Of a DNA stretch of 32,075 nucleotides, positions 2,207 to 15,523 are shown in pieces. Position 1 is the stretch's first letter; each line of letters begins with the position of its first letter. Both the position numbers and the translations under genes were made by a program. The stretch comes from Pseudomonadota bacterium (GTDB lineage: Bacteria; Pseudomonadota; Alphaproteobacteria; UBA9219; RGZA01), in NCBI GenBank assembly GCA_016195205.1, contig JACQAB010000066.1:1-32075 (forward strand), read 5' to 3'. The notes under the pieces were generated by a model. That model saw only the letters and a program-made list of their open reading frames with translations. It made no database searches and was not told the origin of the DNA.

Positions 2207-2632
2207 CTACTGAGCTGGTGGCTTTTTTAAGCCGCCGTGCTCGCGAATCATGCCTGAGATGACCTGTTCGCATTCCGTAGGTTCGTGCCGCGTTCCGTCT
2301 GACGTCTTTCCAACCGGCGGAGCCTTTCTTACTGGCCACGACACCCCTGTGTCGCAATAGGCCAGCCGCACTTTGGCCATGGCATCGGTTTCTTTTTTCT
2401 GGCAGGCCTCGATATCCTTCATCGTGGTCGCTTGCTGAATGCAGGACACCACCTCCTGAAGCCGGTCAAGCCGTTCCTGCCGGCTTTGCAGTGCCAACTC
2501 CCGCGCCGTCTCAAAATCCTCGGGGCGGTTGTAAATTTTCACGTCTTTAAACGGGTTGTTTCCTTCGGCATGAAGCGGCGCGCCGGCCAGCATGGCGAGG
2601 GATAAAAAGGCAAAAGCGAGCGACTTTTTCAT
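2207..2632 (-). CDS. Small secreted 4-Cys protein, tandem paralog 1 (unknown function)
   Basis: 141 aa with SD AGGAGAGG upstream of the ATG and signal peptide MKKSLAFAFLSLAMLAGAPLHA. It is clearly homologous to the next ORF (APLHAEGNxPFKDxKxY...LAYCDTGVSW...PTEC). Confidence 0.7.
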   Translation of the reverse strand: MKKSLAFAFLSLAMLAGAPLHAEGNNPFKDVKIYNRPEDFETARELALQSRQERLDRLQEVVSCIQQATTMKDIEACQKKETDAMAKVRLAYCDTGVSWPVRKAPPVGKTSDGTRHEPTECEQVISGMIREHGGLKKPPAQ

Positions 2633-2653
2633 CGGAAACCTCTCCTAACACTT

Positions 2654-3097
2654 CTACTCGGTGGCGCCCTGTGTTTGGCCATCCCCTAAGCCACTCCGTC
2701 TCTTTTTGATATTTTCAATGGCCTGCAGGGCCTTCTGGCATTCGGTGGGCGGCTTCTTCTTTCCATTCTTTTTGCTGCCCTTACGTGCGTCGAGGTACAG
2801 CCACGACACCCCCGTATCACAATAAGCCAGCCGGATTTTGGCCGTATAATCGGCCTCGGTTTCCTGGCAGGCATAAATATCGTCCATCGCTTTCGCCTGC
2901 CGGATGCACGTCATCACATCCTTGATCCGGTCCATCCGTTCCACGCGATTTTGGAGCGCCAGCTGTTTCGCGACCTCGAAATCCTTGGGGTGGCCATACA
3001 TTTTTATGTCTTTGAATGGATCATTCCCTTCGGCATGAAGCGGCGCAGCCGCAAGCACGGCGAGAAATAAAAAGGCGGAAAGGATCCAGTTTCTCAT
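2654..3097 (-). CDS. Small secreted 4-Cys protein, tandem paralog 2 (unknown function)
   Basis: 147 aa with a GAGGG SD and signal peptide MRNWILSAFLFLAVLAAAPLHA. It aligns with 2207-2632 over about 100 aa, with four conserved Cys. Confidence 0.7.
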   Translation of the reverse strand: MRNWILSAFLFLAVLAAAPLHAEGNDPFKDIKMYGHPKDFEVAKQLALQNRVERMDRIKDVMTCIRQAKAMDDIYACQETEADYTAKIRLAYCDTGVSWLYLDARKGSKKNGKKKPPTECQKALQAIENIKKRRSGLGDGQTQGATE

Positions 3098-3242
3098 GAG
3101 GCCCTCATGGCACAGGTCGGGTTAGAGGTTGGGCATCAGGACAAAGACGCAACCCATCTTGTCTTCATCGTATACCACCCGCGAATAAACGCAAGATGTC
3201 ACACGAATTACTCAAGCGAAACGACGCGCGGGAGCGCGCACG

Positions 3243-4256
3243 TTATTCTGTGGAGTCGTCAGCCTGGTCATCCCCATCCTTACCATCATCGGCGCAGCAC
3301 CACGGAGGAACCGTGCTGGCACTGGTAGAGGCTACCGACGTAAGCAAGGGCACGGGTGCTTCCGAACAGGTCAGCGTGAAAGTTGTGGGAGTCCACAACA
3401 CAATCGTTGTCGAGCCCGAGCGCGGGAAACCCGAAGCGTCCGGTCCCCAGCCTGCCGGCGAGACGCTGCAGGACAGCGTGGCGCCAGGAACGAAGGGCTC
3501 GATGTACCAACTGATCGTTATCGGCGATCCTTCTTCAACCACCGGGGTGTTCGTCGAAAGGATAAGATCCGGGCTGTAACGGAATTTGGTGTTCCAGGTT
3601 AAAACGCCAGGGGGCGTGGCATCAAGATCACCGGCTTGCCATTGCAGCAAAGACATCATCGACGTCGAGCCGCTGTGGCAGGTAAAATTCGGACCCGCCA
3701 CCGCCGGATCCGGAGAGAGAGATACCCCCGTCCGGCCATAAACATTCGGGTTGTTCACATTGATTTGGGTGCAACCGCCGAAGGGCGGCATAACGGCCGT
3801 GGTAGCCGGCGCGCCGTTGTCACTATAAGGGACGGCGCAATGAATCAGGTGAATCGAGCCGTTCAGCAGGTCCGGCGCGGCGGCCAGGAACTTTGTCCAT
3901 TCAATGGACGATTTAAAAGGCACAAAAACTTGCGTGCTACTGTTGTTATCGACCCAGCGGCAAATATTCCATGCCTCAATCGGCGCAATCGCGGCGGACG
4001 TATTTGCGTTGGCGCCGCAGTAATCGGACCCGGCGCAAAGACCCAGACCCTTGATGGAGGACACGGAAGTAAGATAGCCGCCGCCCCCTCCGCCGGGGCA
4101 ACCGACCAGATCTGAAGTTGAAGTCCCCGACAAATTGCATTCATAGGGAATGGTGTTGGCCGCGGCCAAAAACGGCGTGGACAGGGATGCCGAAACGGCA
4201 GCAGCGGCCCAACATAGCAGACCCGCAGTCTTTGACCGGCGTGGGGGTTTCTTCAT
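3243..4256 (-). CDS. Secreted Cys-rich protein with a C-terminal Ig-like segment (unknown function)
   Basis: 337 aa with an N-terminal signal-like segment (MKKPPRRSKTAGLLCWAAAAVSASLSTPFLAAA) and a Gly run (CPGGGGGGY). The C-terminal pattern ITISWYIEP...ATLSCSVSPAGWG...GSTTIVLWTPTTFTLTCSE resembles bacterial Ig-like SxW...C...YTLTC modules. The tail is acidic. Confidence 0.6.
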   Translation of the reverse strand: MKKPPRRSKTAGLLCWAAAAVSASLSTPFLAAANTIPYECNLSGTSTSDLVGCPGGGGGGYLTSVSSIKGLGLCAGSDYCGANANTSAAIAPIEAWNICRWVDNNSSTQVFVPFKSSIEWTKFLAAAPDLLNGSIHLIHCAVPYSDNGAPATTAVMPPFGGCTQINVNNPNVYGRTGVSLSPDPAVAGPNFTCHSGSTSMMSLLQWQAGDLDATPPGVLTWNTKFRYSPDLILSTNTPVVEEGSPITISWYIEPFVPGATLSCSVSPAGWGPDASGFPRSGSTTIVLWTPTTFTLTCSEAPVPLLTSVASTSASTVPPWCCADDGKDGDDQADDSTE

Positions 4257-4486
4257 GCGATACTGTCAGACTTTCTAGAAATCTTCCGTCAGACTACTGG
4301 CAAAAGCTTAATAGTTTCTTATTTTTCAATAAGATGCTGTTCAAATGCCGGGCAGTTTTCTCAAGCTATTCCACGTCTTAATTTTCCGCACCGGGCGATC
4401 TTAATTTGTCATTAAGCTTAGCGCCCGATGATCGCGAACAATCTCCAGCAGCGGCCCCTTATATTGAGAAGGCAAGCAGCCGTCTC

Positions 4487-5374
4487 ATGTCTCTCCCCTC
4501 CCTATCTTTTTCCGACAACAATCACTGGCGGTTTGGCTGGGGCGATGGACTTTATAATTTTCAAAACCAGTATCGGCCGCTGTGGGTCACGTTCGGGCCG
4601 TGCCGCTATTTCCCCCAAACGTTTGACGTTGAAATCGCGGTGGCCGCCCGGAAAATTGCCGAAGCCGCCACGAAACCCATCTATGTTGCGATGAGCGGGG
4701 GTATCGATTCTGAACTCGTGGCGCGCACCATGCTGCAGGAACGCATCCCCTTTACCCCGCTCATTGCGCAATTCGAGAATGATTACAATAAAGACGATAT
4801 TGCCTATGCCCTCGATTTCTGCCGGCGGCATAACCTGACGCCGGAGATTGTAAAGCTCGACATTATTGCTTTTTTTAAAGACAGCATTCACACCCCCTAT
4901 ATCCTGGCCAACTGCGCCCACCTCATGCAGATGCATCTGATGCGGCACGCCGCCCGTCTGGGCGGCATGGCTGTCATCGCCGTCGGCGAGCAGCGCTATG
5001 CAATCGAAGATGGAAAGGTTTTTGTTCCGGTCCCCATCGAGCGCATTGCCGTGACCCATTTCATGCAGGCCGAAGGCGTAGAAGGCGTTTCGGCTTTTTA
5101 TTGCTACACCCCCGAGATGATGTTGAGCCTGCTGCGCGAGGCCAAGGCGCACGGCTTCGGTGAGGTAAGCGAATTCGCCCACAACATCAAGGAAGATATT
5201 TACCGCAAATTCTGGCCGGATTTATCGCCCCGGCCGAAATATTCCGGGTTTGAAAATGTTCTCGAGCATCGAAGAGCCGCCCAAAAAAAACTGCACAAGA
5301 AATATGGCCCGATGCTTATCAAATTTATGATCCCGCTTGATGAACTGGAACTTCAACTTTCCAAGGGGTTATAG
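4487..5374 (+). CDS. PP-loop ATP pyrophosphatase (adenine nucleotide alpha-hydrolase superfamily), specificity unknown
   Basis: SGGxDS PP-loop motif in KPIYVAMSGGIDSELVARTM. The ORF-track start at 4406 is a TTG; I prefer the first ATG at 4487 (MSLPSLSF...), but the start is uncertain. First gene after an AT-rich divergent intergenic region. Confidence 0.75.
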   Translation: MSLPSLSFSDNNHWRFGWGDGLYNFQNQYRPLWVTFGPCRYFPQTFDVEIAVAARKIAEAATKPIYVAMSGGIDSELVARTMLQERIPFTPLIAQFENDYNKDDIAYALDFCRRHNLTPEIVKLDIIAFFKDSIHTPYILANCAHLMQMHLMRHAARLGGMAVIAVGEQRYAIEDGKVFVPVPIERIAVTHFMQAEGVEGVSAFYCYTPEMMLSLLREAKAHGFGEVSEFAHNIKEDIYRKFWPDLSPRPKYSGFENVLEHRRAAQKKLHKKYGPMLIKFMIPLDELELQLSKGL

Positions 5375-5381
5375 TTACACC

Positions 5382-6413
5382 ATGGGCCTTCTTCTTCATC
5401 ACGGCATGGTCGGCGTCGACACTCTTCCCCTTAAGCCCATTTTTCCGCGGGTCTACCCCTTCACGCAAATGGTCAACCGCGTCCTGCTGGATCAGATTGA
5501 TCCTTTTCATTACACGCTTTGCTGCGAGCCCATCGCCGATATTCTTAAGCTTCCCTCCACCCGCAAAAGCTTCGGCGAAGTGGCGGAAGAACGCGCCCAT
5601 GAAATGAAGGCCTATGACGGGCCGCTCTACATTATGTACAGCGGCGGCGTCGACTCCTCCTCGGCGGTGGTGGCATTTCTAAGAACCTGGTCGCCCGAAG
5701 AACTGAAACGCGTTCATATCCTGGCCTCGCATCACAGCGTCAGCGAATTCCCCGAGCTCTGGAACGTCATCGTCGACAAATTCAAGGGACGCATTCTTCC
5801 CTCTTTCCGGCACATCGAATATTACTGCGACCGCGGCTATGTGGTCACCGGTGAGCATGGCGACCAGCTTTTCGGCTCGGACATCATCCGCAACATTTTC
5901 CACATGCATGGCGATGAAGCCATCCACCAGCCCTGGCAACAGGTCATGCCCGGCATCTATGCCAAGATTTTTCCGCCCGAGATCGTGGGCGGTTTCCTCA
6001 CCCGCTACGAACAAACGCTTAGCGCCTGCCCGTTCCCGATACGGACAAGCTTTGACTGGATCTGGTGGTTCAACTTCACCAACAAATGGCAGCACGTGAA
6101 ATACCGCCTGCTGTCCAATAAGCCCTGGCGCAATGCCAGGGAATCCTTCAAGAAGATCAAACATTTTTATGATACGCCGGGGTGGCAGCGCTGGAGCCTC
6201 GACAATCACGATAAAAAAATCGGCAAGCTCTACGAATCCTACAAACTGGCGGCCAAAGAATATATCGTTGGCGCAACCGGATTTTCCGATTACATTCGAA
6301 AGCCCAAGGTGGGTAGCCTGTTTCAGATCTGGCGCTGTACGGGCTTTTACGAAGCCACCGATACGTCGTTTAAACATCTTACCCGCGAAGAAGCCCTGGA
6401 GTATGTGCGATGA
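5382..6413 (+). CDS. Second, divergent PP-loop ATP pyrophosphatase, specificity unknown
   Basis: SGGxDS motif in GPLYIMYSGGVDSSSAVVAFL, preceded by a helix as in Asn-synthetase-C-like domains. Alternative starts at 5337 (TTG) and 5340 (ATG) would overlap the previous gene by 35-38 nt. The stop overlaps the next start (ATGA at 6410-6413). Confidence 0.75.
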   Translation: MGLLLHHGMVGVDTLPLKPIFPRVYPFTQMVNRVLLDQIDPFHYTLCCEPIADILKLPSTRKSFGEVAEERAHEMKAYDGPLYIMYSGGVDSSSAVVAFLRTWSPEELKRVHILASHHSVSEFPELWNVIVDKFKGRILPSFRHIEYYCDRGYVVTGEHGDQLFGSDIIRNIFHMHGDEAIHQPWQQVMPGIYAKIFPPEIVGGFLTRYEQTLSACPFPIRTSFDWIWWFNFTNKWQHVKYRLLSNKPWRNARESFKKIKHFYDTPGWQRWSLDNHDKKIGKLYESYKLAAKEYIVGATGFSDYIRKPKVGSLFQIWRCTGFYEATDTSFKHLTREEALEYVR

Positions 6414-7003
6414 GTGTTTGCATCTATCTTTTCCGCGAGCGCATCATCTACTGGACACCGCAAACGCTTTTTAACAAACCCGCCAGCGTGGGCAGGACAA
6501 AATGGTACATCATCAATGAGGCTGCGCCCATTCCCCTGAATGAAATGGTCCAGCGCGGCAACGTGGGCTATACCCAGCAGGAAGGCTTTTACACCGTGGA
6601 GGGCGACTCGCCCGCGGACTGGGACGAGCGCATCAATCTGGTCAAGAAAATCCAGATTATCGGCGGGCTGAACACCCTGGCGAACAACCACAAATCAAAA
6701 TACACCGACAATTCGCTGGGTCAGGCGCTGGCCGACATTCTGCTGCTGGATGAAATCCGCGAATACCGCCGTACCAACAGCCTGGAAAACTGCGCCATTA
6801 TCACGTCGCTGCTCGAAACCAGCGAAGCCCGGCTCACGCCCGACGCCCTGGTCACCAAATTATGGCTGCAATACGAGTCTTACCGCACCGTGATCGCCTA
6901 TTTAAACCACCTGGAATCCAGTGTCCGGCAATTGCTGAAAGACGACCATTTCGACAAGGCCAATGAACTGCTCGGCAGCGAGCTGGAGAAGCTGAGAACC
7001 TAG
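6410..7003 (+). CDS. Hypothetical protein, translationally coupled to the second PP-loop gene
   Basis: 197-aa ORF whose start overlaps the upstream stop (ATGA). The sequence is protein-like with no motif I recognise, and the C-terminal half looks helical. Confidence 0.6.
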   Translation: MSVCIYLFRERIIYWTPQTLFNKPASVGRTKWYIINEAAPIPLNEMVQRGNVGYTQQEGFYTVEGDSPADWDERINLVKKIQIIGGLNTLANNHKSKYTDNSLGQALADILLLDEIREYRRTNSLENCAIITSLLETSEARLTPDALVTKLWLQYESYRTVIAYLNHLESSVRQLLKDDHFDKANELLGSELEKLRT

Positions 7004-7125
7004 GGTCTGTCCTCATAAACAGCCGGAAAGACGCGAGCGTAAACAAAGGCCTACCCTATAAAGGAATTATCAATTTTTATGTCGCAAACATAGGCCTGGC
7101 CCCTGCTCCCGGGGCAGGAGGCAAA

Positions 7126-7806
7126 ATGGACGACCTAAGAATGAGCCAGAACACCCGCGCGCCCCAGCAAACCGAGGCGCAGAAAAAGTTCGGCGTCGAA
7201 TATTACCACCCGGGGCAGCAGGTCATCTCAGGTTCACGCGACGGCGATCTTTACACCTACACCACCTATATCGGCACGTATCTGGTGAACGTGGAAAAAG
7301 GCGACTGCGCCTATACCTACGACGGCAAGGGCATGGCGCATGTGCAGCCGGGCCCCTGCAAGATTCAGTCTACTCTTATCACCACCGTGATCCGCGGCTA
7401 TGCGCCGGCCCTGCGCTCGACCGCGGTGGGCCGCTCCACCTATCTGCCTTATGTGAATGGCTGCTCGACCCGCCAGGTGTTCACGCCCGACCGCATTGGC
7501 GATCCCACGCTTCAGCTGCTGCATATGCCGCCGCATAGCAGCGAACAGGTGCATCACATCCATTCCACCGCGCGGGTGGTGCATGTGCTGGAGGGGCGCG
7601 GGCGCTCGCTGGTCGGCATGGAGCAATGGGTGGAAAAGCAGGAGCTGGTGCCGGGAATGTCGATCATTCTGCATCCCATGTGCCCGCATCATTTTGAAAC
7701 GGACGATAATTCGCTGCTGGTGCTGCCGCTGCATATCTTCAGCTCGCCACCCGGCGGAACCGAATTCGACCATCCCATGTTCAACGGGACGCACCGGATT
7801 GGATAA
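7126..7806 (+). CDS. Cupin-fold metalloprotein (unknown function)
   Basis: 226 aa with SD AGGAGG 5 nt upstream of the ATG. Two-motif cupin signature: HHIHSTARVVHVLEGRG (HxH...E...G) and VPGMSIILHPMCPHHFET (PxG...H). Confidence 0.7.
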   Translation: MDDLRMSQNTRAPQQTEAQKKFGVEYYHPGQQVISGSRDGDLYTYTTYIGTYLVNVEKGDCAYTYDGKGMAHVQPGPCKIQSTLITTVIRGYAPALRSTAVGRSTYLPYVNGCSTRQVFTPDRIGDPTLQLLHMPPHSSEQVHHIHSTARVVHVLEGRGRSLVGMEQWVEKQELVPGMSIILHPMCPHHFETDDNSLLVLPLHIFSSPPGGTEFDHPMFNGTHRIG

Positions 7807-7922
7807 GTTTCCAGCTTGAGCTAAAAAGAGAATGGCCGCGCCACGCGTAGCTGCGGCAGGAAGCCCGTCTTCGCCCTTCGGGCTACGCCGGGCACGCTTC
7901 GCGCGCTACCGCTTGCGAAGCG

Positions 7923-7967
7923 TGGTGGACAATACAGGGCTCGAACCTGTGACCCGCTGATTAAGAG
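7923..7967 (-). repeat. Orphan 3' half of tRNA-Lys (CCA end to anticodon loop); att-like direct repeat
   Basis: tggtggacaatacagggctcgaacctgtgacccgctgattaagag matches 15448-15492 at 44 of 45 positions (hand alignment). The adjacent sequence cannot supply a D-arm or the 5' acceptor strand, so this is not a functional tRNA. Confidence 0.85.
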
Positions 7968-8131
7968 CCCCGCCCATAGCTTTCTATAATTTTTCGATTT
8001 CAATCTCAACAATTTGATTCAGTTCGATAAAGGGAAGAATCGCCTATCCCGTTTGTTCTCTAAAAATCCCTCGGAAACCCGCCTTTTCTTGGCACGATTA
8101 CACGGAAATTACACTGAGTTTTTTGAAGTGA

Positions 8132-8569
8132 TTAGGATTTATACTTTAGGAGCTTAGCCCTGATGAAATGAGCCAGCGACAGCTTGCCGGGGCCGAAGCA
8201 CAGGAGGGTGGCCAGCAGCATCGCCCAGTAGAAATGCTCCATGTTGCTGTCATAGGTGAACTGGATGACGGCAACCATCGCCAGCATCGGCAGGGTGGCA
8301 AGTCGCGCTCCAAGTCCCAGCACCAGCAGCACCGGGCAAGCCAACTCGAAACTGGTGGCAAATAGCGCCGCAAGTGAAGGCGGCAGCAAGGGAACGTGAT
8401 ATTCTTCCTTGAAGAGATAGAGAGTGTTACCCCAATCCTCTATCTTCACCATGCCGGATTGCCAGAAAATCTTGGCCATCCATAGCCTTGCCGCCAAAAG
8501 AACGAGATTTCCCAATTCCTGCAACATGGCTAGGATGCGGGTGGCGGCTTTGACGCAGGCTGGATGCAT
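8132..8569 (-). CDS. DoxX family membrane protein
   Basis: Multi-TM protein with a DoxX-like sequence (LLAARLWMAKIFWQSGMVKI...ELACPVLLVLGLGARLATLPMLAMVAVIQF). The ORF-track start at 8623 lies upstream of the predicted ECF promoter's transcription start, so I prefer the ATG at 8569 (MHPACVKAATR...). Confidence 0.8.
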   Translation of the reverse strand: MHPACVKAATRILAMLQELGNLVLLAARLWMAKIFWQSGMVKIEDWGNTLYLFKEEYHVPLLPPSLAALFATSFELACPVLLVLGLGARLATLPMLAMVAVIQFTYDSNMEHFYWAMLLATLLCFGPGKLSLAHFIRAKLLKYKS

Positions 8570-8609
8570 GGCGCGGTTTCCCTTCGCGTCGTTCGTTATC
8601 TTTAGTTCC

Positions 8610-8636
8610 TTCGGTTTAGGCATCGTTTTGGTTACA
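8610..8636 (-). promoter_or_regulatory. ECF (SigF/ECF16-like) promoter motif TGTAACC-N16-CGAA upstream of DoxX
   Basis: The minus strand reads aTGTAACCaaaacgatgcctaaacCGAAgg with an exact 16-nt spacer. It is one of three identical-architecture motifs in the window. Confidence 0.6.
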
Positions 8637-9199
8637 TGAATACGGAAAAGAACCCTTTAAATCCTGAAACCGGGAATGAACGGCTGGAAATCCTCATGTC
8701 TCTTGCTCTTGCGGGAGACAGAAAGGCCTATGAGCGGGTTTTGCGCCTTGTTAGCCAGCGGTTAACCGTTTTTCTTGGCCGGAAGCTCCCCGCCAAAGAC
8801 CGCGACGATGTGATGCAGGAGATTTTGCTTTCCATTCATAAGGCCCGCCATACCTACGATCCGGCCAGGCCGCTGATGCCCTGGGTTATGGCCATTGCCC
8901 GCTACCGGATGCATGACCATTGGCGGCGGCATTACGGCCATTCTTTCGATGAAATGGCCGATATTGAGGATTTAAAAAATATTTTGAGCACGGACATAAC
9001 CGAAACCCTTCATGGTAACGAAGATATAAGAAGGATACTTGTGACCTTGCCGGAGCGGCAGCAGGTAATCCTTGAATTGATGTACCGGCAGGACAAAAGC
9101 GTGCGGGAGGTTGCCAAACAGTTAAAAATGAGCGTTTCGGCGGTGAAAGTCGCGGCGCACCGGAGCTACAAGATTTTCCGCAAACATCTGAAAGCGTAG
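8636..9199 (+). CDS. ECF-type RNA polymerase sigma-70 factor (SigF/ECF16-like)
   Basis: 187 aa. Region 2 (DDVMQEILLSIHKARHTYDPARPLMPWVMAIARYRMHDHWRR) and region 4 HTH (LPERQQVILELMYRQDKSVREVAKQLKMSVSAVKVAAHRS). It is followed 5 nt later by a DUF1109-type anti-sigma. An alternative start exists at 8696. Confidence 0.85.
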   Translation: MNTEKNPLNPETGNERLEILMSLALAGDRKAYERVLRLVSQRLTVFLGRKLPAKDRDDVMQEILLSIHKARHTYDPARPLMPWVMAIARYRMHDHWRRHYGHSFDEMADIEDLKNILSTDITETLHGNEDIRRILVTLPERQQVILELMYRQDKSVREVAKQLKMSVSAVKVAAHRSYKIFRKHLKA

Positions 9200-9204
9200 A
9201 AGAA

Positions 9205-9843
9205 ATGTCGAAAACCGATGAAACCATAGGCAGTATTTTAGCTACGGCTACGCCGGTTAAAACAGCGCAGCCCATGCGCCTTTTGCTGGGCTGGCTTGCC
9301 GTGACGGTGGTGGGAACGTTTTTGATGGTGCTGTTCATGGCTCCCCGTGATGATCTTGCCCTGCAACTGGCCTCGCCATTGTTCCTTGCGGAAACAATTC
9401 TCTTGATAGCCCTGATTGTCACTTCGGCATTTGTCGCAGTCTGCCTCTGCTTTCCCGATATGTGTCAAAGGCATTGGATGCTTTATGCGCCGCTCCTGCC
9501 GCTGGCGGCTTATTCTGCGCTGCTCGGCTACCAACTCGTGCATCCGGAAATGGTGGCGCTGCCTGCCGTTAAGATGGGCGGCGTTGATTGCGCCTTATGC
9601 ATCAGCATGTTTGCCGTTATTCCGGGGTTCTGGATGTTTCATATCTTGCACCGCCATGCCACCACCCACCCGATCCTTGCCGGGGCCGTATCCCTGCTAA
9701 CAGCGTCGAGCATCGGGCACCTGGTGCTTAAATTCGTGGAAAAAAACGATGCTATCTCGCATCTGGCCTTATGGCATTTCCTGCCGATCTTGCTGCTGGC
9801 GGCTGTTGGCGCCTTTTTGGGCAGGAAATTTTTATCTTGGTAG
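9205..9843 (+). CDS. DUF1109 / NrsF-like membrane anti-sigma factor
   Basis: 212 aa with about six predicted TM segments and several Cys residues, sitting directly downstream of the ECF sigma. This is the standard partner arrangement of the SigF-NrsF type. Confidence 0.7.
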   Translation: MSKTDETIGSILATATPVKTAQPMRLLLGWLAVTVVGTFLMVLFMAPRDDLALQLASPLFLAETILLIALIVTSAFVAVCLCFPDMCQRHWMLYAPLLPLAAYSALLGYQLVHPEMVALPAVKMGGVDCALCISMFAVIPGFWMFHILHRHATTHPILAGAVSLLTASSIGHLVLKFVEKNDAISHLALWHFLPILLLAAVGAFLGRKFLSW

Positions 9844-9845
9844 CG

Positions 9846-9872
9846 TGTAACCGCTTTCTCTCAGGGCACGAA
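9846..9872 (+). promoter_or_regulatory. ECF promoter motif TGTAACC-N16-CGAA upstream of the precursor peptide gene
   Basis: cgTGTAACCgctttctctcagggcaCGAAtag with an exact 16-nt spacer. It lies about 60 nt upstream of the ATG at 9932. Confidence 0.65.
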
Positions 9873-9931
9873 TAGAAAATTATGCAGGCACTCTTCGCTT
9901 GCCGTTAACAACCATCCTCAAGGAGAAAATC

Positions 9932-10204
9932 ATGAATAAGACCGTTCTATGCGCCGCTTTGGCGGGGGTTTTGGCCGCTGGTATGGCCGGAAGCGCTTAT
10001 GCCGCCGACATGCCCAACAAGGAAAAATGTTACGGCATCGCCAAGGCAGGAAAAAATGACTGCAAATCCATGAGCGGCTCGCACTCCTGTGCCGGTCATT
10101 CCACGAAGAACTATGATCCGGGCGATTTCAAGGTGGTCAACAAAGGCCAGTGCGAAAAGCTGGGCGGCTCTCTGGCAGCCCCCGAAGCAGCTCCGGCTGA
10201 GTAA
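9932..10204 (+). CDS. DUF2282-type secreted 4-Cys precursor peptide (bufferin/GigA-like)
   Basis: 90 aa with SD AAGGAGA 5 nt upstream of the ATG at 9932 (the ORF track extends to a TTG at 9899). Signal peptide MNKTVLCAALAGVLAAGMAGSAYA, then EKCYGIAKAGKNDCKSMSGSHSCAGHS...NKGQCEKLGG, which matches the DUF2282 signature as I remember it. Confidence 0.85.
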   Translation: MNKTVLCAALAGVLAAGMAGSAYAADMPNKEKCYGIAKAGKNDCKSMSGSHSCAGHSTKNYDPGDFKVVNKGQCEKLGGSLAAPEAAPAE

Positions 10205-10217
10205 GGCTTTTGGAAGG

Positions 10218-10240
10218 GCATGGCCTGAACAGGGCCATGT
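10218..10240 (+). terminator. Hairpin between the precursor and MNIO genes (possible partial terminator or attenuator)
   Basis: GCATGGCC tgaacag GGCCATGt followed by ctttccggcttt. An 8-bp stem including one G-U pair; the U-tract is poor. Confidence 0.3.
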
Positions 10241-10255
10241 CTTTCCGGCTTTATC

Positions 10256-11122
10256 ATGAATCATTCTGCTTATCCTTATCTTGGCTTCGGGCTTGGCCTT
10301 CGCGCCCCGCATTATGAACAGGTTTTGCGCGAACAGCCTGATGTGGACTGGTTCGAGATCATCTCGGAAAATTTCATCGATGCCCATCAAGGCTATTGGG
10401 ATTATCTTGCCGATCTGCGCTGTGATTACCCGCTGGTGATGCATGGTGTTTCACTGTCCATCGGCAGCCCCGATCCATTGAACCAGGAATATCTGCGCAA
10501 ACTAAAAAAACTGGCGGATTTTATAAAACCGGCATGGCTTTCCGATCATCTTTGCTTCACCGGGCTGGGCGGCCATAACACCCACGATCTGTTGCCTTTG
10601 CCCTATACGCAGGAAGCCCTGCGCCATGTCATTGCGCGTGTGGACGAGGCGCAGGAGCGCCTTGGGCGCGTCATCGTACTTGAAAATCCCTCGACCTATT
10701 TTGAATACCGGCAATCCGAACTGGCGGAGTGGGATTTTTTGCGCGAGTTGGCGAAAGCCACCGGCTGCGGGATTTTGCTGGATGTGAACAATGTTTACGT
10801 CAGCGCCTTCAATCACGGTTTTGATCCGAAAACCTATATCGACGCCATTCCCGCCGAAGCCATCGCCCAAATCCATCTGGCCGGACACAAGAATAAGGGA
10901 ACGCATATCGTCGACACGCATGACGCGCCCGTGATTGAGGATGTATGGGGTTTATACGCCACCACCATCGCGCAAAAAGGCAGTATCAGCACGCTGATCG
11001 AGTGGGATGAAAATATCCCGCCGTTGGCAACCCTGCTTGCTGAAATGGAGAAGGCCCGCGCATTTATTCAAAACAAAACTCCCTCCAAACGCGCCCGTCA
11101 TGACTTACACGAATATGCTTGA
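10256..11122 (+). CDS. DUF692 family MNIO enzyme (MbnB/BufB-like)
   Basis: 288 aa. LGFGLGLRAPHYEQVL...VDWFEIISENF...LVMHGVSLSIGS...PAWLSDHLCFTG...VLENPSTY...LLDVNNVYVSAFNHGFD...IAQIHLAGH is the characteristic DUF692 TIM-barrel pattern. Confidence 0.9.
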   Translation: MNHSAYPYLGFGLGLRAPHYEQVLREQPDVDWFEIISENFIDAHQGYWDYLADLRCDYPLVMHGVSLSIGSPDPLNQEYLRKLKKLADFIKPAWLSDHLCFTGLGGHNTHDLLPLPYTQEALRHVIARVDEAQERLGRVIVLENPSTYFEYRQSELAEWDFLRELAKATGCGILLDVNNVYVSAFNHGFDPKTYIDAIPAEAIAQIHLAGHKNKGTHIVDTHDAPVIEDVWGLYATTIAQKGSISTLIEWDENIPPLATLLAEMEKARAFIQNKTPSKRARHDLHEYA

Positions 11123-11885
11123 GAAAGTGCAGGATTCCATCATCAGCGGCGATGCCGGGGTTGCGGCCCCGTTGGTGCGGCCAAACCCACGGCTTTCAGC
11201 CTCCGCGTTGCTTGGTATTTATATCGAAGGCTACCGGATAAGGCTTTCGCAGGCGGTGCGCTCCGATTATCCCTGTCTTGCCCATTATCTGGGTGAAGAG
11301 CGGATGAATGGGCTGGTTGCCGCCTATGTGAAAAAAACGCCTTCGTGTTCCTATAATCTCGATCACTACCCCTTCGCCTTCCGCCGTTTTGTCGCACAAG
11401 CTTGTGAGGATGAAGCCGCCCATGCGCTGGCGGAACTGGAAGGCGTGATGGCAGAAGTCTTTATGCTGCCGGAAAGCGCGCCGATGGATTTTGAAAGCTT
11501 TGGCAGCCTCGATGCCGAAAGCCTTGGCCGTATGAGCTTTGCATTACGTTCTGCCGGGATGCTCATCCGGCTTGCCTATGACGCGGAAGCTTATTTACAG
11601 GCCTACAAAAAGGGCGAAGCAGAAAAAGATATTCAGAAACGCCCGGCCCATCTCTACCTTTACCGGCACGATAACGAAGTGAAGCGGCAGCAACTTGAGA
11701 TAGCCGAATATCAGGTGTTAAGCGCCCTTGGCCACGGAGAAAGTTTCAGCGCCGCTATTGAAACGGCGCTGGCTTCGCACATTTACGCTGCCGCTGCCTT
11801 GGCAGAAAAAATCCGGTCGTGGCTGCCGAAATGGATCGGGCAGGGCTTCTTCGCCCATACGGAAAGGGTGAAAAAATCGGTGTAA
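11100..11885 (+). CDS. DUF2063 domain protein (MNIO partner, BufC-like)
   Basis: Follows and overlaps the DUF692 gene. N-terminal pattern LLGIYIEGYRIRLSQAVRSDYPCLAHYLGEERMNGLVAAYVKKTP fits DUF2063. The start is ambiguous (11100 or 11115); the track start at 11007 would overlap by 116 nt. Confidence 0.75.
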   Translation: MTYTNMLEKVQDSIISGDAGVAAPLVRPNPRLSASALLGIYIEGYRIRLSQAVRSDYPCLAHYLGEERMNGLVAAYVKKTPSCSYNLDHYPFAFRRFVAQACEDEAAHALAELEGVMAEVFMLPESAPMDFESFGSLDAESLGRMSFALRSAGMLIRLAYDAEAYLQAYKKGEAEKDIQKRPAHLYLYRHDNEVKRQQLEIAEYQVLSALGHGESFSAAIETALASHIYAAAALAEKIRSWLPKWIGQGFFAHTERVKKSV

Positions 11886-11907
11886 CCAAGCGGGCCGTGC
11901 CGCCGAA
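11881..11907 (+). promoter_or_regulatory. ECF promoter motif TGTAACC-N16-CGAA upstream of the small Cys ORF and mer-like genes
   Basis: gTGTAACCaagcgggccgtgccgcCGAAtaa with an exact 16-nt spacer. It overlaps the TAA stop of the DUF2063 gene. Confidence 0.6.
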
Positions 11908-11969: not shown

Positions 11970-12098
11970 ATGTCCATGATGTGCAAATCCGGCGCGTGCC
12001 GAGCCAAGAGTGGCCCCTGCATCCATGAAAAACTGATGCTGGCGATGATGGTTATAGCCATCCCGCTTTTAGGACATTTCGCGTTTCACTGGTTTTAA
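11970..12098 (+). CDS. 42-aa Cys-rich membrane-anchored peptide (hypothetical)
   Basis: SD AAGGGAGA upstream of the ATG at 11970. MSMMCKSGACRAKSGPCIHEKLMLAMMVIAIPLLGHFAFHWF has three N-terminal Cys plus one TM helix. The track ORF begins earlier at 11913 without an SD. Confidence 0.45.
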   Translation: MSMMCKSGACRAKSGPCIHEKLMLAMMVIAIPLLGHFAFHWF

Positions 12099-12110
12099 CA
12101 AAAATCCATC

Positions 12111-12461
12111 ATGACGCCGCAACTGGGTTGGAAGGAATCGCTTTTTGGAAGCGTATTGGCAGCCATAGGAGCTTCTCTATGCTGTGTCGCTCCTTTGGCG
12201 CTTCTGGCCGTGGGTATTAGCGGGGCCTGGATTGGTTCCCTGACGGCGTTTGAGCCTTACCGCCCCGTTTTCGTGGGCCTGACGCTGCTGTTTCTTGGTG
12301 TGGCTTTTCACAAGCTATATTTTGCGCCCAAAACTTGCGTTCCCGGTAGCCCTTGCGCCGACCCCCGCACCGCCAAGCGTCAGCGCCTGGTATTCTGGAT
12401 TGTAGCGCCGCTTTTGCTTGGTCTGCTCGCCGCGCCCTGGCTTGCCCCGTTATTTTATTGA
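12111..12461 (+). CDS. merT: MerT-like metal (mercuric ion) transport membrane protein
   Basis: 116 aa. A CC pair in the first TM (AAIGASLCCVAPLALLAVGISGAWIGSLTAFEPYRPVF) and a second Cys pair (KTCVPGSPC) line up closely with canonical MerT as I remember it. Confidence 0.85.
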   Translation: MTPQLGWKESLFGSVLAAIGASLCCVAPLALLAVGISGAWIGSLTAFEPYRPVFVGLTLLFLGVAFHKLYFAPKTCVPGSPCADPRTAKRQRLVFWIVAPLLLGLLAAPWLAPLFY

Positions 12462-12474
12462 AAGGAGAGACACC

Positions 12475-12753
12475 ATGCGCCGATTGTTGCTAACCATCAT
12501 GTTCGTTCTGCTATCTTTCGCCGCCAGCGCGGCGGTTCCGCAAACGCTTACCCTCGATGTGCAAAAAATGACTTGCCCTGTTTGTCCATTCACGGTTAGC
12601 GCAGCCCTTGAGAAAGTGCCCGGTGTAACGAAAGCAAATGTTGATTTTTGGGATAAAACCGCGACGGTGACTTTCGATCCTGATAAAACCAACGCCGAGG
12701 CCCTTATCAAGGCCACCACGGAGGCGGGGTATCCATCCTCGGTGAAGCCATAG
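12475..12753 (+). CDS. merP: MerP-like periplasmic heavy-metal-binding (HMA) protein
   Basis: SD AAAGGAGAG upstream of the ATG at 12475, signal peptide, MTCPVCPFTV metal-binding motif, and a C-terminal ATTEAGYPSSVKP nearly identical to the canonical MerP end. Confidence 0.85.
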   Translation: MRRLLLTIMFVLLSFAASAAVPQTLTLDVQKMTCPVCPFTVSAALEKVPGVTKANVDFWDKTATVTFDPDKTNAEALIKATTEAGYPSSVKP

Positions 12754-12771: not shown

Positions 12772-12999
12772 ATGTCTGTAAAATCCCAATCCACCATCAC
12801 CTGCCCGCATTGCGGCTACCAGAAAACGGAGATCATGCCGGTGGATAGCTGCCAGTTTTTCTATGATTGTCAGGGCTGTCAGGCCGTGCTGCGTCCCAAA
12901 CAGGGAGATTGCTGCGTGTTCTGCTCTTACGGTTCTGTGCCCTGCCCGCCGGTGCAGCAAGCCCGTGCTTTGGAAAGTAATGAGCGGGGCAAGCTATGA
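12772..12999 (+). CDS. GDCCVxC domain protein (small Cys-rich, mer-associated family)
   Basis: CPHCGY...[34 protein letters not shown] contains the GDCCVxC signature. The start is either ATG 12772 or TTG 12757. The stop overlaps the next start (ATGA at 12996-12999). Confidence 0.75.
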
Positions 13000-15344
13000 G
13001 AAGGACCGGTTTTTTTATAGTATGGGCGTCGATCGTGATCTCTATGGCGGCCCATGCAATGGAACCGGAAAAACAAAAACCTAATCGCCTGATTAACGAA
13101 ACCAGCCCTTATCTGCTGCAACACGCCTATAATCCGGTGGAGTGGTATCCGTGGGGCGAAGAAGCTTTTGCCAAGGCGCGCAAGGAAAACAAGCCTATCT
13201 TGCTCAGCATCGGCTATTCCACCTGCTACTGGTGCCATGTGATGGAGCGCGAGACATTCGAGAACGAGGCCATCGCCAAGCTGATGAATGATTCCATCAT
13301 CAGCATCAAGATCGACCGCGAACAGCGCCCGGATGTGGATGAAATCTATATGACCGCCACCCAACTGATGACGCAAAGCGGCGGCTGGCCAAACAATGTG
13401 TTCGTCACGCCCGATCTCAAGCCATTCTTCGCCGGAACTTATTTTTCGCCCGAAGATACGTCTTATCGTCCTGGCTTTGCGACGCTCATCAAGCACATCC
13501 ACGAGGAATGGACAAAAAACCCGGAAGCAATCAAGGAACAGGCGGAGCGTGTGCGCGCCGCGATTGTTTCCTTCAAGCAGGGGGAAAGCCATCAGGTTGC
13601 CACGGCCTTACCGGATCAAAACACTGTCCAAACCCTGCTCGATCATTTTCGGAATAATTACGATAGCCATCTGGGCGGTTTTTATCAGGCCCCGAAATTT
13701 CCCAATGAAGATGCCCTGCTGTTCCTGCTGGCGGCTTACCGGATGAACAATGATGCCCGTGCCTTGGAGATGGCGCAGTTCACGCTCACTAAAATGGCCG
13801 AGGGCGGGATTTACGATCAGGTCGGCGGCGGGTTCCACCGCTATTCCACCGACGCCGAATGGCGCATCCCGCATTTTGAAAAGATGCTTTACAATCAGGC
13901 CCTGCTTGGCCGTGCCTATACGGAACTTTATTCTTTCTCGAACGCGCCTCTTGACCGCGGCATCGCGGCCAGCACCTTCGATTTCGTGTTGAGAGATATG
14001 ACCCATCCGGAGGGTGGCCTTTACTCGGCGCTGGATGCCGAAACGGATGGAGCGGAAGGCGCTTCTTACGCCTGGACGGAAGCGGAGTTGCAGAAAATCC
14101 TCGATCAAAAATCCTATGTCTGGCTGAGCCGGTATTACGGCTTGGCCGACATTCCCCACATACCGGGGCACAAGAACACCGACGGGAAAATCCTTTATCT
14201 GAAACAGCCGGTTGCCAAAATCGCGGCGGCGGAAAAAGTCTCATCCGAGCAAGTCCTTGCCCGGATGCAACCTATCATGGATACCCTGCGCAAGGCCCGC
14301 GATAAACGGCAACAGCCGCGTCTGGACGACAAGATCATCACCGCCTGGAATGGTTTGATGATCGACAGCCTGGCCCGCGCCGGGATGGAGTTAAAAGAGG
14401 AAAAATATACGGAAGCCGCAAAGAAAGCGGCGGATTTCGTGCTGGCCCATCTGCGCACCCCGGACGGGGAGTTGCTGCGCATGTGGCGCGGCGGCAAGGC
14501 CCAGACTCCTGCGTTCTTTGAAGATTACAGCTTCCTTATTCAAGGGCTGGTTTCTACTTATCACGCGACGAAAGACGGGCGCTATCTTGCCGAGGCGGAA
14601 AAACTTGCGCAAAAGGCCAAGGAAATATTCTGGGATAAGGAAGGCGGAGGGTACTTCTATACCGATGGGAATGAGGCGTTGCTGGTGCGCATGAAAAACG
14701 CCGAAGATTCGGCCATTCCTTCCGGCAATGCCATCATGGCACAGGTCCTTCTGGACTTATACGAACTTACGGGCAAGGCCGAATGGAAACAGCAGGCGGA
14801 AGATATGCTCAAGGCCTTCGGCATGGCGATAGAAGCCAATCCCCGAAGCTATACCCATTTGGTGCATGCCTTGCTGCGTCTGGATCACGCCGCGCCGGTA
14901 GCCGACACAACCAGCATGCAGAATGTTGCGGTCGCAGCCGATAAGGACGCCATGTCAACCATGACATGGGTGAAAGTCAGCGTTCCTGAAAACGCGGTCA
15001 AACGTAACACTGATCAGCTTCGCGTGACGGCGGAACTGGATGTTGCTCCCGGCTGGCATGTTAATGCCAATCCCGCCAGCCTGGATTTTCTGGTTTCCAC
15101 CTCGGCGGATTTACGCGAAGATTCAGGAGCGCTGGTCATAAAAGCTGTCCATTACCCCGAAGCCACGGCTATGACAACCCCGTTGGGTCATATTAAAATC
15201 TATGAAGGAAAGATTCTCATCTCCATAGAGGCGCGAGCGCCCAAGGACGCAAAAAATCTCCGCCTTCTTGTCCGGGCGCAAGCCTGCAAGGACACCACCT
15301 GCCTTGCTCCGTCGGACTGGGTGATTAAGTTGCCGGGATCATGA
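12996..15344 (+). CDS. Periplasmic thioredoxin-fold DUF255 (YyaL-like) protein with a C-terminal DsbD-N-like domain
   Basis: 782 aa with signal peptide [43 protein letters not shown] is the DUF255 CxxC thioredoxin motif. The C-terminus ([19 protein letters not shown]...[18 protein letters not shown]) resembles the DsbD N-terminal/ScsB-type Ig-fold domain. Confidence 0.85.

Positions 15345-15447: not shown

Positions 15448-15523
<76 letters not shown>

Follow-up and report, generated by a model that had tools for sequence, protein, structure and literature searches.

A probable bufferin 1 gene cluster with its own SigF/NrsF-type switch, followed by a MerR-less mer-like operon, in an uncultured alphaproteobacterium

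The closest described relative of the locus reported here is the bufferin system of Caulobacter vibrioides, in which sigF and nrsF (CC3253-CC3252) adjoin and control a DUF2282-DUF692-DUF2063-DoxX operon (CCNA_03363-03366 = CC3254-CC3257; PMC3511200; PMC11626156, Fig. 1A). This operon makes bufferin 1: BufB together with BufC installs two 5-thiooxazoles (-4 Da each) in the precursor, export proceeds by Sec, and the product binds both Cu(II) and Cu(I) very tightly, with a dissociation constant for Cu(I) of ~7e-20 M (Leprevost et al., PMC11626156). In bufferins of this type (Buf1) the central cysteines are modified and the outer pair forms a disulfide (PMC12452194). The sequence bound by Caulobacter sigmaF, mapped by rapid amplification of cDNA 5' ends (5'-RACE), is GTAACC-N16-CGAA (PMC3511200). 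A 2025 survey found that genes for a sigma factor and NrsF occur in Buf1 clusters (Leprevost et al., Microb Genom, PMC12452194, Fig. 3d), and it also described MerC-bufferin fusions in mercury clusters (PMC12452194). Here we analyse a 32,075-nt contig, JACQAB010000066.1, of a Pseudomonadota bacterium (assembly GCA_016195205.1, class Alphaproteobacteria); this whole stretch is referred to below as the window. It carries, from position 8132 onwards, a bufferin-like gene cluster and a mer-like operon behind it.

The locus probably represents a bufferin gene cluster of the Buf1 type that carries its own SigF/NrsF-type extracytoplasmic function (ECF) sigma/anti-sigma switch. A first-pass annotation, made from the letters of the sequence, had called it a gig/bufferin cluster with such a pair, and this call is borne out. 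The six open reading frames (ORFs) concerned are present where that annotation had placed them, and Pfam and NCBIfam profile searches assigned each to the family named for it, i.e. DUF2282, DUF692/MNIO (multinuclear non-heme iron oxidative enzyme), DUF2063, DoxX, DUF1109 and ECF sigma. (Of the 62 window ORFs with 120 aa or more, the 30 picked as likely genes went into the Pfam scan.) The MNIO maturase gene, bufB (10256-11122, +; PF05114, 366 bits), encodes a protein that passes the cutoff of the NCBIfam BufB equivalog (MNIO_BufB, NF050167; 372.1 against 310) and falls below those of the HvfB (249 against 360), MbnB (64 against 325), ApyH and ChrH equivalogs, which places it specifically in the bufferin branch of the family. 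A sequence search of the PDB gave the DUF692 protein 3BWW as its nearest solved structure (E = 1.6e-42), with the MbnB structures distant; the same search with BufA and BufC returned no match.

The precursor gene, bufA1 (9932-10204, +), encodes 90 residues that match PF10048 (DUF2282/BufA1) with 82.5 bits against a cutoff of 22.4. As had been noticed at first reading, the peptide has a Sec-type signal and a four-cysteine core: by inspection, its N-terminus is Sec-like, with K3, hydrophobic residues 4-21, an AYA/AD motif and a predicted cut at A24/A25, and the core cysteines Cys33, Cys44, Cys53 and Cys74 align with those in the BufA of relatives, to which it is 60-70% identical. The gene for the partner protein, bufC (11115-11885, +; PF09836, DUF2063, 51.9 bits against a cutoff of 27.2, with a weak NGO1945_C match), does overlap the bufB stop as reported before, by 8 nt, or by 23 nt if ATG 11100 is used, as in relatives. 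BufC scores 33 on the NCBIfam HvfC equivalog, under the cutoff of 142. Gene set and precursor (DUF2282, Sec signal, four Cys) thus match those of Caulobacter, and the locus belongs to exactly the architecture class of Buf1 clusters with sigma factor and NrsF genes recognized in the survey (PMC12452194). Oxazolin (HvfABC) and methanobactin (MbnABC) systems likewise use an MNIO and a partner to turn peptide cysteines into copper-binding heterocycles; the precursor in the window, however, is a DUF2282 protein, and not an EGKCG-repeat peptide or MbnA.

The ECF sigma gene, SigF-like (8636-9199, +), contains Sigma70_r2 and Sigma70_r4_2 domains and scores 75.8 on TIGR02937 (cutoff 42.9). It is followed after 5 nt by the gene for the NrsF/DUF1109 membrane anti-sigma factor (9205-9843, +), which matches PF06532 with 110.5 bits over profile positions 4-204 of 204. 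The bufD-like doxX gene lies divergently (8132-8569, -; PF07681, 58.6 bits) and encodes 145 aa from ATG 8569; its product scores 50 on the NCBIfam HvfX model, under the cutoff of 80. A longer ORF for DoxX (163 aa; 8132-8623, -) was rejected as over-extended. We placed the start at 8569 because a sigmaF-type promoter falls within the first 14 codons of the long ORF, an AAGGGA ribosome-binding site stands 9 nt ahead of ATG 8569, and 145 aa fits the DoxX proteins of relatives (143-154 aa).

The order doxX(-)/sigma-nrsF-bufA-bufB-bufC(+) recurs in four distinct loci from related metagenome-assembled genomes (MAGs), L003, L005, L006 and L009 (loci fetched from other genomes carry such L numbers). 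The first-pass annotation had taken the placement of the regulator inside the cluster to be undescribed; it had already been published (PMC3511200; PMC11626156, Fig. 1A; PMC12452194). The nearest BufB relatives, 68-71% identical, come from alphaproteobacterial MAGs, followed at lower identity by MAGs labelled Rickettsiales, and an exact look-up of the BufB sequence returned only one 1.5-kb contig, giving no further context. When single window proteins served as tblastn queries against the 80 genome loci, sensitivity was too low to pick up BufA, DoxX and sigma of distant taxa; for architecture frequencies we rely on the published survey (PMC12452194) and derived none from these searches. One related MAG, GCA_028866275.1, carries two complete sigma-nrsF-buf1 clusters of different layout: in L002 (contig 9) the genes are co-linear and come with a PAP2 gene and motifs of the GTAACT type, and L009 (contig 13) is divergent, with a mer-like operon and GTAACC motifs.

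The sequence bound by sigmaF in Caulobacter is present in the locus without a change. The window contains exactly three copies of GTAACC-N16-CGAA where 0.02 would be expected, a count not reached in any of 100 shuffles; only 11 exact matches occur across 1.36 Mb of fetched genome loci. All three lie inside the locus, in productive orientation, 40-90 nt ahead of a start codon. The first (8610-8635, -) serves as putative promoter of doxX, has its -35 box abutting the start codon of the sigma gene, and is found at the same site in L003, L005, L006, L009 and L012. The second (9847-9872, +) lies between nrsF and bufA, 60 nt before the bufA ATG, as the putative bufABC promoter, and is kept in L003, L006, L009, L011, L012 and L014; L005 has it with one mismatch. 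The loci that share these sites come from related MAGs of Alphaproteobacteria or Rickettsiales. The third (11882-11907, +) overlaps the bufC stop codon, ahead of a small ORF and the mer-like operon; in L009, within otherwise different sequence, the same motif stands at the end of bufC (11593-11618), followed by a homologue of the small ORF and by merT. The first-pass annotation had proposed metal or oxidative stress control of the locus; these three exact copies of the Caulobacter consensus support the stress control. In comparison with Caulobacter, where doxX is the last gene of the operon, doxX in the window is divergent and has a sigmaF-type promoter of its own. The doxX -35 box abuts or overlaps the divergent sigma start in the window (8630-8638), L003 (8367-8371), L005 (8364-8365) and L009 (7856-7863). 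A match with a 17-nt spacer inside the sigma genes of relatives was dismissed as coincidence, since it falls in coding sequence that is conserved, and the window lacks it.

Between bufA and bufB the plus strand can form a GC-rich hairpin of 17 bp (10210-10248, +; dG -29.4 against -12.7 +/- 2.8 in shuffles). Comparable bufA-bufB hairpins occur in L002, L003, L005, L006 and L009, where the structure is kept and the sequence differs. The element is probably an attenuator or mRNA stabiliser, and probably shifts the ratio of precursor to enzyme upwards.

Behind the third motif follow five closely spaced genes, for a 42-aa protein, MerT, MerP, a GDCCVxC protein and a DUF255/DsbD_N protein. The merT-like gene (12111-12461, +; PF02411, 115.7 bits) encodes an inner-membrane transporter for thiophilic metals, which scores 116 on the NCBIfam MerT equivalog, under the cutoff of 150, retains the CC pair (C24, C25) and C76/C82, and is 67-73% identical to MerT of MerR-controlled modules. 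MerP (12475-12753, +; TIGR02052, 112.7 against a cutoff of 92.55; PF00403) is a periplasmic metal-binding HMA-domain protein with an MTCPVC motif. The GDCCVxC-domain protein (12772-12999, +; NF041374, 105.1 against 40) is Cys-rich and has no signal peptide. The ATGA start of the last gene (12996-15344, +) overlaps the stop of the GDCCVxC gene; it encodes an exported, 782-aa thioredoxin-like DUF255 protein (DsbH-type) with a C-terminal DsbD_N domain (PF03190, 245.8 bits; PF11412, 36.8 bits). In L009 the order is small ORF, merT, merP, an uncalled GDCCVxC ORF and a cation-efflux gene, in the place where the window has the DUF255 gene.

In a metagenome scan anchored on MerT, merT-merP-GDCCVxC occurred in this order in about 65 of 80 loci, with the DUF255 gene next in four (L160, L161, L166 and L168). 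A divergent merR preceded the unit in 56 of the 75 loci with enough upstream DNA, and the MerR of L095 and L106 passes the Hg-type cutoff (TIGR02051). The module MerR-merT-merP-GDCCVxC without MerA is very common and near-invariant in metagenomes (L090-L169, e.g. L115 9666-10860 and L160 306-3962), and often stands beside a Tn3-family transposase or a cation diffusion facilitator transporter. Such modules share with the window the order merT, merP, GDCCVxC, DUF255, at 60-73% protein identity, as well as the four canonical MerT cysteines, the MerP CxxC and the lack of MerA, so that none of them is a canonical mer operon. In place of the divergent Hg-type MerR, however, the window has a sigmaF-type promoter and a small Cys-rich membrane ORF. 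No MerR was found in the window by tblastn with two MerR queries, nor in L009. In the simplest reading of this arrangement, promoter replacement has brought a mercury-type module for transport and sequestration into a SigF-type regulon. The first-pass annotation had regarded linkage to a mer-like module as undescribed, and here it fared better than with the regulator: the linkage is real, rare and recurrent (window and L009), and in the literature we found no description of an ECF-promoter-driven merT-merP-GDCCVxC operon. Literature searches on the GDCCVxC protein and on NrsF with MerT likewise returned nothing relevant. According to the survey, extra conserved genes occur in Buf1 clusters in extremely low proportions, and we found in it no mention of a merT-merP-GDCCVxC operon or of the 42-aa ORF (PMC12452194).

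The first gene of the mer-like operon (11970-12098, +), preceded by an AAGGGAG ribosome-binding site, encodes a Cys-rich protein of 42 aa with a single transmembrane segment (MSMMCK...C...C-x-HE...GHFAFHWF). It had no Pfam or NCBIfam match and a word-index homologue search came up empty; exhaustive HMMER search, however, gave 15 representative homologues of 40-54 aa with full-length matches. Residues M1, S2, C5, C10, G15, C17 and H19 are invariant and are followed by a hydrophobic helix, and most members end in GH-x-x-FHWF. Homologous genes are found between a divergent sigma-nrsF pair and bufA-bufB-bufC-doxX (L170, 1432-1560); just 5' of an ECF sigma gene, a 90-aa ORF and a BufA gene (L177, 68-199); adjoining a BufA1 gene (the contig of P0124); upstream of bufA behind a motif variant (L002, ~9316); directly before merT-merP (L176, 190-324); and in L009 (11676-11807). 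In the more distant of the small-ORF loci, L170-L177, there is no sigmaF-type motif, and these organisms presumably use other ECF specificities. The MSMMCK proteins are a genuine small-protein family, so far without annotation and linked to buf1/ECF and MerT loci. Two further small membrane families occur in related buf1 clusters, one of 46-51 aa with C...C...C-x-PC and a transmembrane helix, the other of 79 aa with a CPxC motif inside a transmembrane segment (L009 9117-9266 and 9277-9516; L170 4077-4217 and 4222-4461; L002 11692-11847). They sit behind sigmaF-type motifs in L009 and L002, and neither is present in the window.

The genes from doxX to the DUF255 gene lie between two copies of a tRNA sequence. 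An intact tRNA-Lys(CTT) gene (15448-15523, -; called by ARAGORN, and by Rfam with 73.3 bits) is the putative integration site and proximal attachment site (att). The stretch at 7923-7969 (-) repeats its 3' half, anticodon loop through CCA, and is the putative distal att; it forms a direct repeat of 45-47 nt with 15448-15492, with one mismatch. The 38-mer core of the repeat has exactly two copies in the window, against 0 expected, and there is no third copy of the repeat. Read along the minus strand, the order is intact tRNA-Lys, 7.5 kb, displaced 3' half. A direct repeat of a tRNA 3' half is the classic footprint of integration at a tRNA site. The repeats enclose exactly the genes from doxX through DUF255, extending 162 nt past the doxX stop and 103 nt past the DUF255 stop. 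GC content is 0.533 in the enclosed segment; the flanks have more, 0.598 on the right and, by a small margin, 0.556 on the left; GC at third codon positions (GC3) is 0.58-0.70 in the enclosed genes and 0.69-0.81 in housekeeping genes, which make up the right flank (hemF, agmatine deiminase, pheST, pta and others). Because all of them lie between the intact tRNA-Lys and its 3'-half copy, the enclosed genes were probably acquired together as a 7.5-kb island, a setting in which the window also differs from Caulobacter; present mobility of the island is unproven. The tRNA-bounded island of the first-pass annotation is therefore partly right: there is one intact tRNA-Lys with a displaced 3'-half repeat, and the enclosed DNA is lower in GC, but it contains no integrase. 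A second tRNA gene at the left boundary was rejected, since ARAGORN and Rfam (including a scan of 7700-8200 in E-value mode) call only one and the repeat search identifies the left copy as a fragment.

To the left of the island, the uncharacterised ORFs at 2207-7806 yielded nothing usable when scanned with PADLOC and PHROGs. Between 2207 and 7003, six ORFs in a row (141-358 aa) lack any Pfam, PADLOC or convincing PHROGs match, and two neighbours among them, 4406-5374 and 5337-6413, show PP-loop-like signatures (SGGVDSS; weak matches to asparagine synthase, LarE and TilS); the region 2207-7003 may be an uncharacterised biosynthetic or accessory block beside the island. Further left, a 414-aa protein (932-2176, -) contains a cytochrome P460 domain (58.8 bits). 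This domain is unusual outside nitrifiers and methanotrophs, and the protein may hint at the physiology of the organism.

Taken together, these features make probable a mechanism that follows the one known from Caulobacter and adds a second operon to it. By analogy with Caulobacter, membrane-bound NrsF would hold the ECF sigma factor inactive at rest, and metal stress acting on NrsF in the periplasm would release it. The free sigma factor would then fire the three GTAACC-N16-CGAA promoters, and with them doxX, bufA-bufB-bufC and the five-gene second operon. If the Caulobacter chemistry applies, BufB and BufC would turn Cys44 and Cys53 of BufA into 5-thiooxazoles in the cytoplasm; Sec would export the peptide, with removal of the signal peptide and formation of a Cys33-Cys74 disulfide; and the mature peptide of 66 residues would chelate or buffer copper in the periplasm. 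For the second arm we go beyond the Caulobacter work and suggest that MerP, MerT and the GDCCVxC protein may form an inward route and a cytoplasmic cysteine sink for thiophilic ions (Hg; possibly Cu(I), Cd and Au), and that the DUF255/DsbD_N protein may keep periplasmic thiols in the right redox state. A bolder, two-arm proposal, which is on balance unlikely, would make the integrase-less 7.5-kb tRNA-Lys island self-contained, with a single ECF regulon: its first arm would be the bufferin as a thiooxazole metallophore of the periplasm, and its second a MerR-less MerP/MerT import route leading to a GDCCVxC sink in the cytoplasm, accompanied by a dedicated DUF255/DsbD_N reductase in the periplasm and the 42-aa Cys3-His protein.

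A number of observations weigh against these proposals. No sigmaF-type motif (up to two mismatches, spacers of 15-17 nt) is present upstream of the sigma gene, in which the window again differs from Caulobacter; because the -35 box of doxX abuts the sigma start, the sigma gene's own promoter would lie within the doxX leader or in its 5' coding region. NrsF reaches only 40.7 bits on the NCBIfam NrsF equivalog NF042994 (cutoff 300), and is thus a member of the Pfam family and not a close orthologue of that equivalog. It contains no Cys between residues 133 and 212, so none near C181 of the Caulobacter protein (compared by position), whose cysteines are C131 and C181; instead it has a CxxC near residue 130, C129-x2-C132, which is conserved in NrsF of the window's clade. 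The sensing chemistry may therefore differ from that of Caulobacter, and the sensing site is probably this motif. DoxX is dispensable for bufferin function in Caulobacter (PMC11626156). No MerA was found in the window, and no pyridine-nucleotide-disulfide oxidoreductase among the 30 scanned ORFs; the mer-like operon is therefore not a canonical mer resistance operon, and import of mercury without MerA would be harmful unless the GDCCVxC sink suffices. Linkage of buf and mer-like genes is rare: of 88 loci anchored on BufB one shows it, and of 80 anchored on MerT two do so loosely, both of these being MerR-controlled modules with a BufB homologue a few kb off. The segment between the repeats holds no integrase, Pfam, PHROGs and PADLOC detected none in the left flank either, and no empty site is available for comparison. 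Finally, all support comes from sequence and comparison, and the organism is an uncultured MAG.

Part of this evidence could be explained in other ways. The mer-like genes might be an independent neighbour, transcribed from another promoter or by read-through and functionally unconnected to the bufferin, with the third motif a chance or vestigial match. The rarity of the linkage is what this would lead one to expect, as are the mostly self-standing, MerR-controlled nature of the triad, often on Tn3-family transposons, and the unrelated genes that follow bufC in three of the closest buf1 loci. It nevertheless has to accommodate an exact 10-base match with fixed spacing that is expected 0.02 times per window, the same motif at the same junction of L009 despite a different surrounding sequence, the absence of the usual regulator MerR in exactly the window and L009, and the presence of the small ORF that follows the motif in other buf1/ECF clusters as well; we regard it as very unlikely. 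The repeats pose a similar question, since the tRNA-Lys half-copy could be a relic unrelated to the buf genes, e.g. of an older, lost element, and the cluster ordinary chromosomal DNA. That no integrase, excisionase or transposase lies between the repeats, that GC differs only modestly from that of the left flank (0.533 against 0.556), and that no tRNA lies within 10 kb of any of six related buf loci all agree with a relic. A relic would not, however, be expected to bracket the regulon genes nearly exactly (162 and 103 nt beyond the terminal stops) with a 47-nt tRNA 3'-half repeat typical of tRNA-site integration, around genes whose GC3 is clearly below that of the housekeeping genes on the right. 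A relic is a serious possibility, although we hold joint acquisition as an island to be the better reading.

What the regulon responds to is a separate matter. It may be tuned mainly to mercury or another soft metal and not to copper, in which case the ions bound by the bufferin in the periplasm would be Hg(II), Cd or Au, to be handed inward by MerP/MerT to the GDCCVxC protein. The identity of its MerT to that of Hg-type MerR modules (67-73%) and the MerP score above the equivalog cutoff point this way, as do the induction of gig operons by gold, the induction of Caulobacter sigmaF by cadmium and chromate (PMC3511200) and the MerC-Buf1 fusions in mercury clusters (PMC12452194). On the other hand, the sole characterised Buf1 is induced by copper and binds it with femto- to zeptomolar affinity (PMC11626156), neither MerA nor MerB is present in the window, and sequence cannot reveal metal specificity. 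We consider such tuning distinctly unlikely. There is even less to be said for a regulon that answers primarily to oxidative or thiol stress. In other bacteria, the Neisseria Ecf/MsrAB regulon includes DUF692/DUF2063 genes, and Bradyrhizobium has EcfF/OsrA. In favour of this reading, two products of the regulon are redox proteins, namely DoxX and the DUF255 protein with its thioredoxin fold and DsbD_N domain, and Caulobacter sigmaF was first tied to peroxide survival in stationary phase (PMC3511200). All non-regulatory products (MerT, MerP, GDCCVxC, BufA, DUF255) are, however, Cys-rich, metal-binding or thiol-redox proteins, and in Caulobacter H2O2, tert-butyl hydroperoxide, paraquat and diamide did not induce the sigmaF regulon (Kohler et al., PMC3511200). 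A primary response to metal remains the reading we prefer, and one to oxidative stress seems improbable.

Gene set, embedded SigF/NrsF pair and promoter consensus had all been published before, and in this respect the locus adds little to bufferin biology. The new elements, as read from the sequence, are the ECF-promoter-driven, MerR-less mer-like operon, the MSMMCK family and the tRNA-Lys repeat boundaries, none of them very surprising. The Caulobacter sigmaF consensus holds unchanged in distant, uncultured Alphaproteobacteria, which makes the regulon readable straight from sequence. The tRNA-Lys repeats suggest that a bufferin regulon can be transferred in one piece. MSMMCK deserves a family model of its own and, if the two-arm proposal is true, would be an unrecognised accessory of bufferin and MerT systems. 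In two MAGs, that of the window and that of L009, a merT-merP-GDCCVxC operon appears to have swapped MerR for an ECF promoter, which hints that bufferin systems can couple to metal import and sequestration, and to metals besides copper. If the two-arm proposal is true and the arms cooperate, bufferins would do more than buffer passively in the periplasm: capture-and-import detoxification, possibly of mercury or other soft metals, would begin with them.

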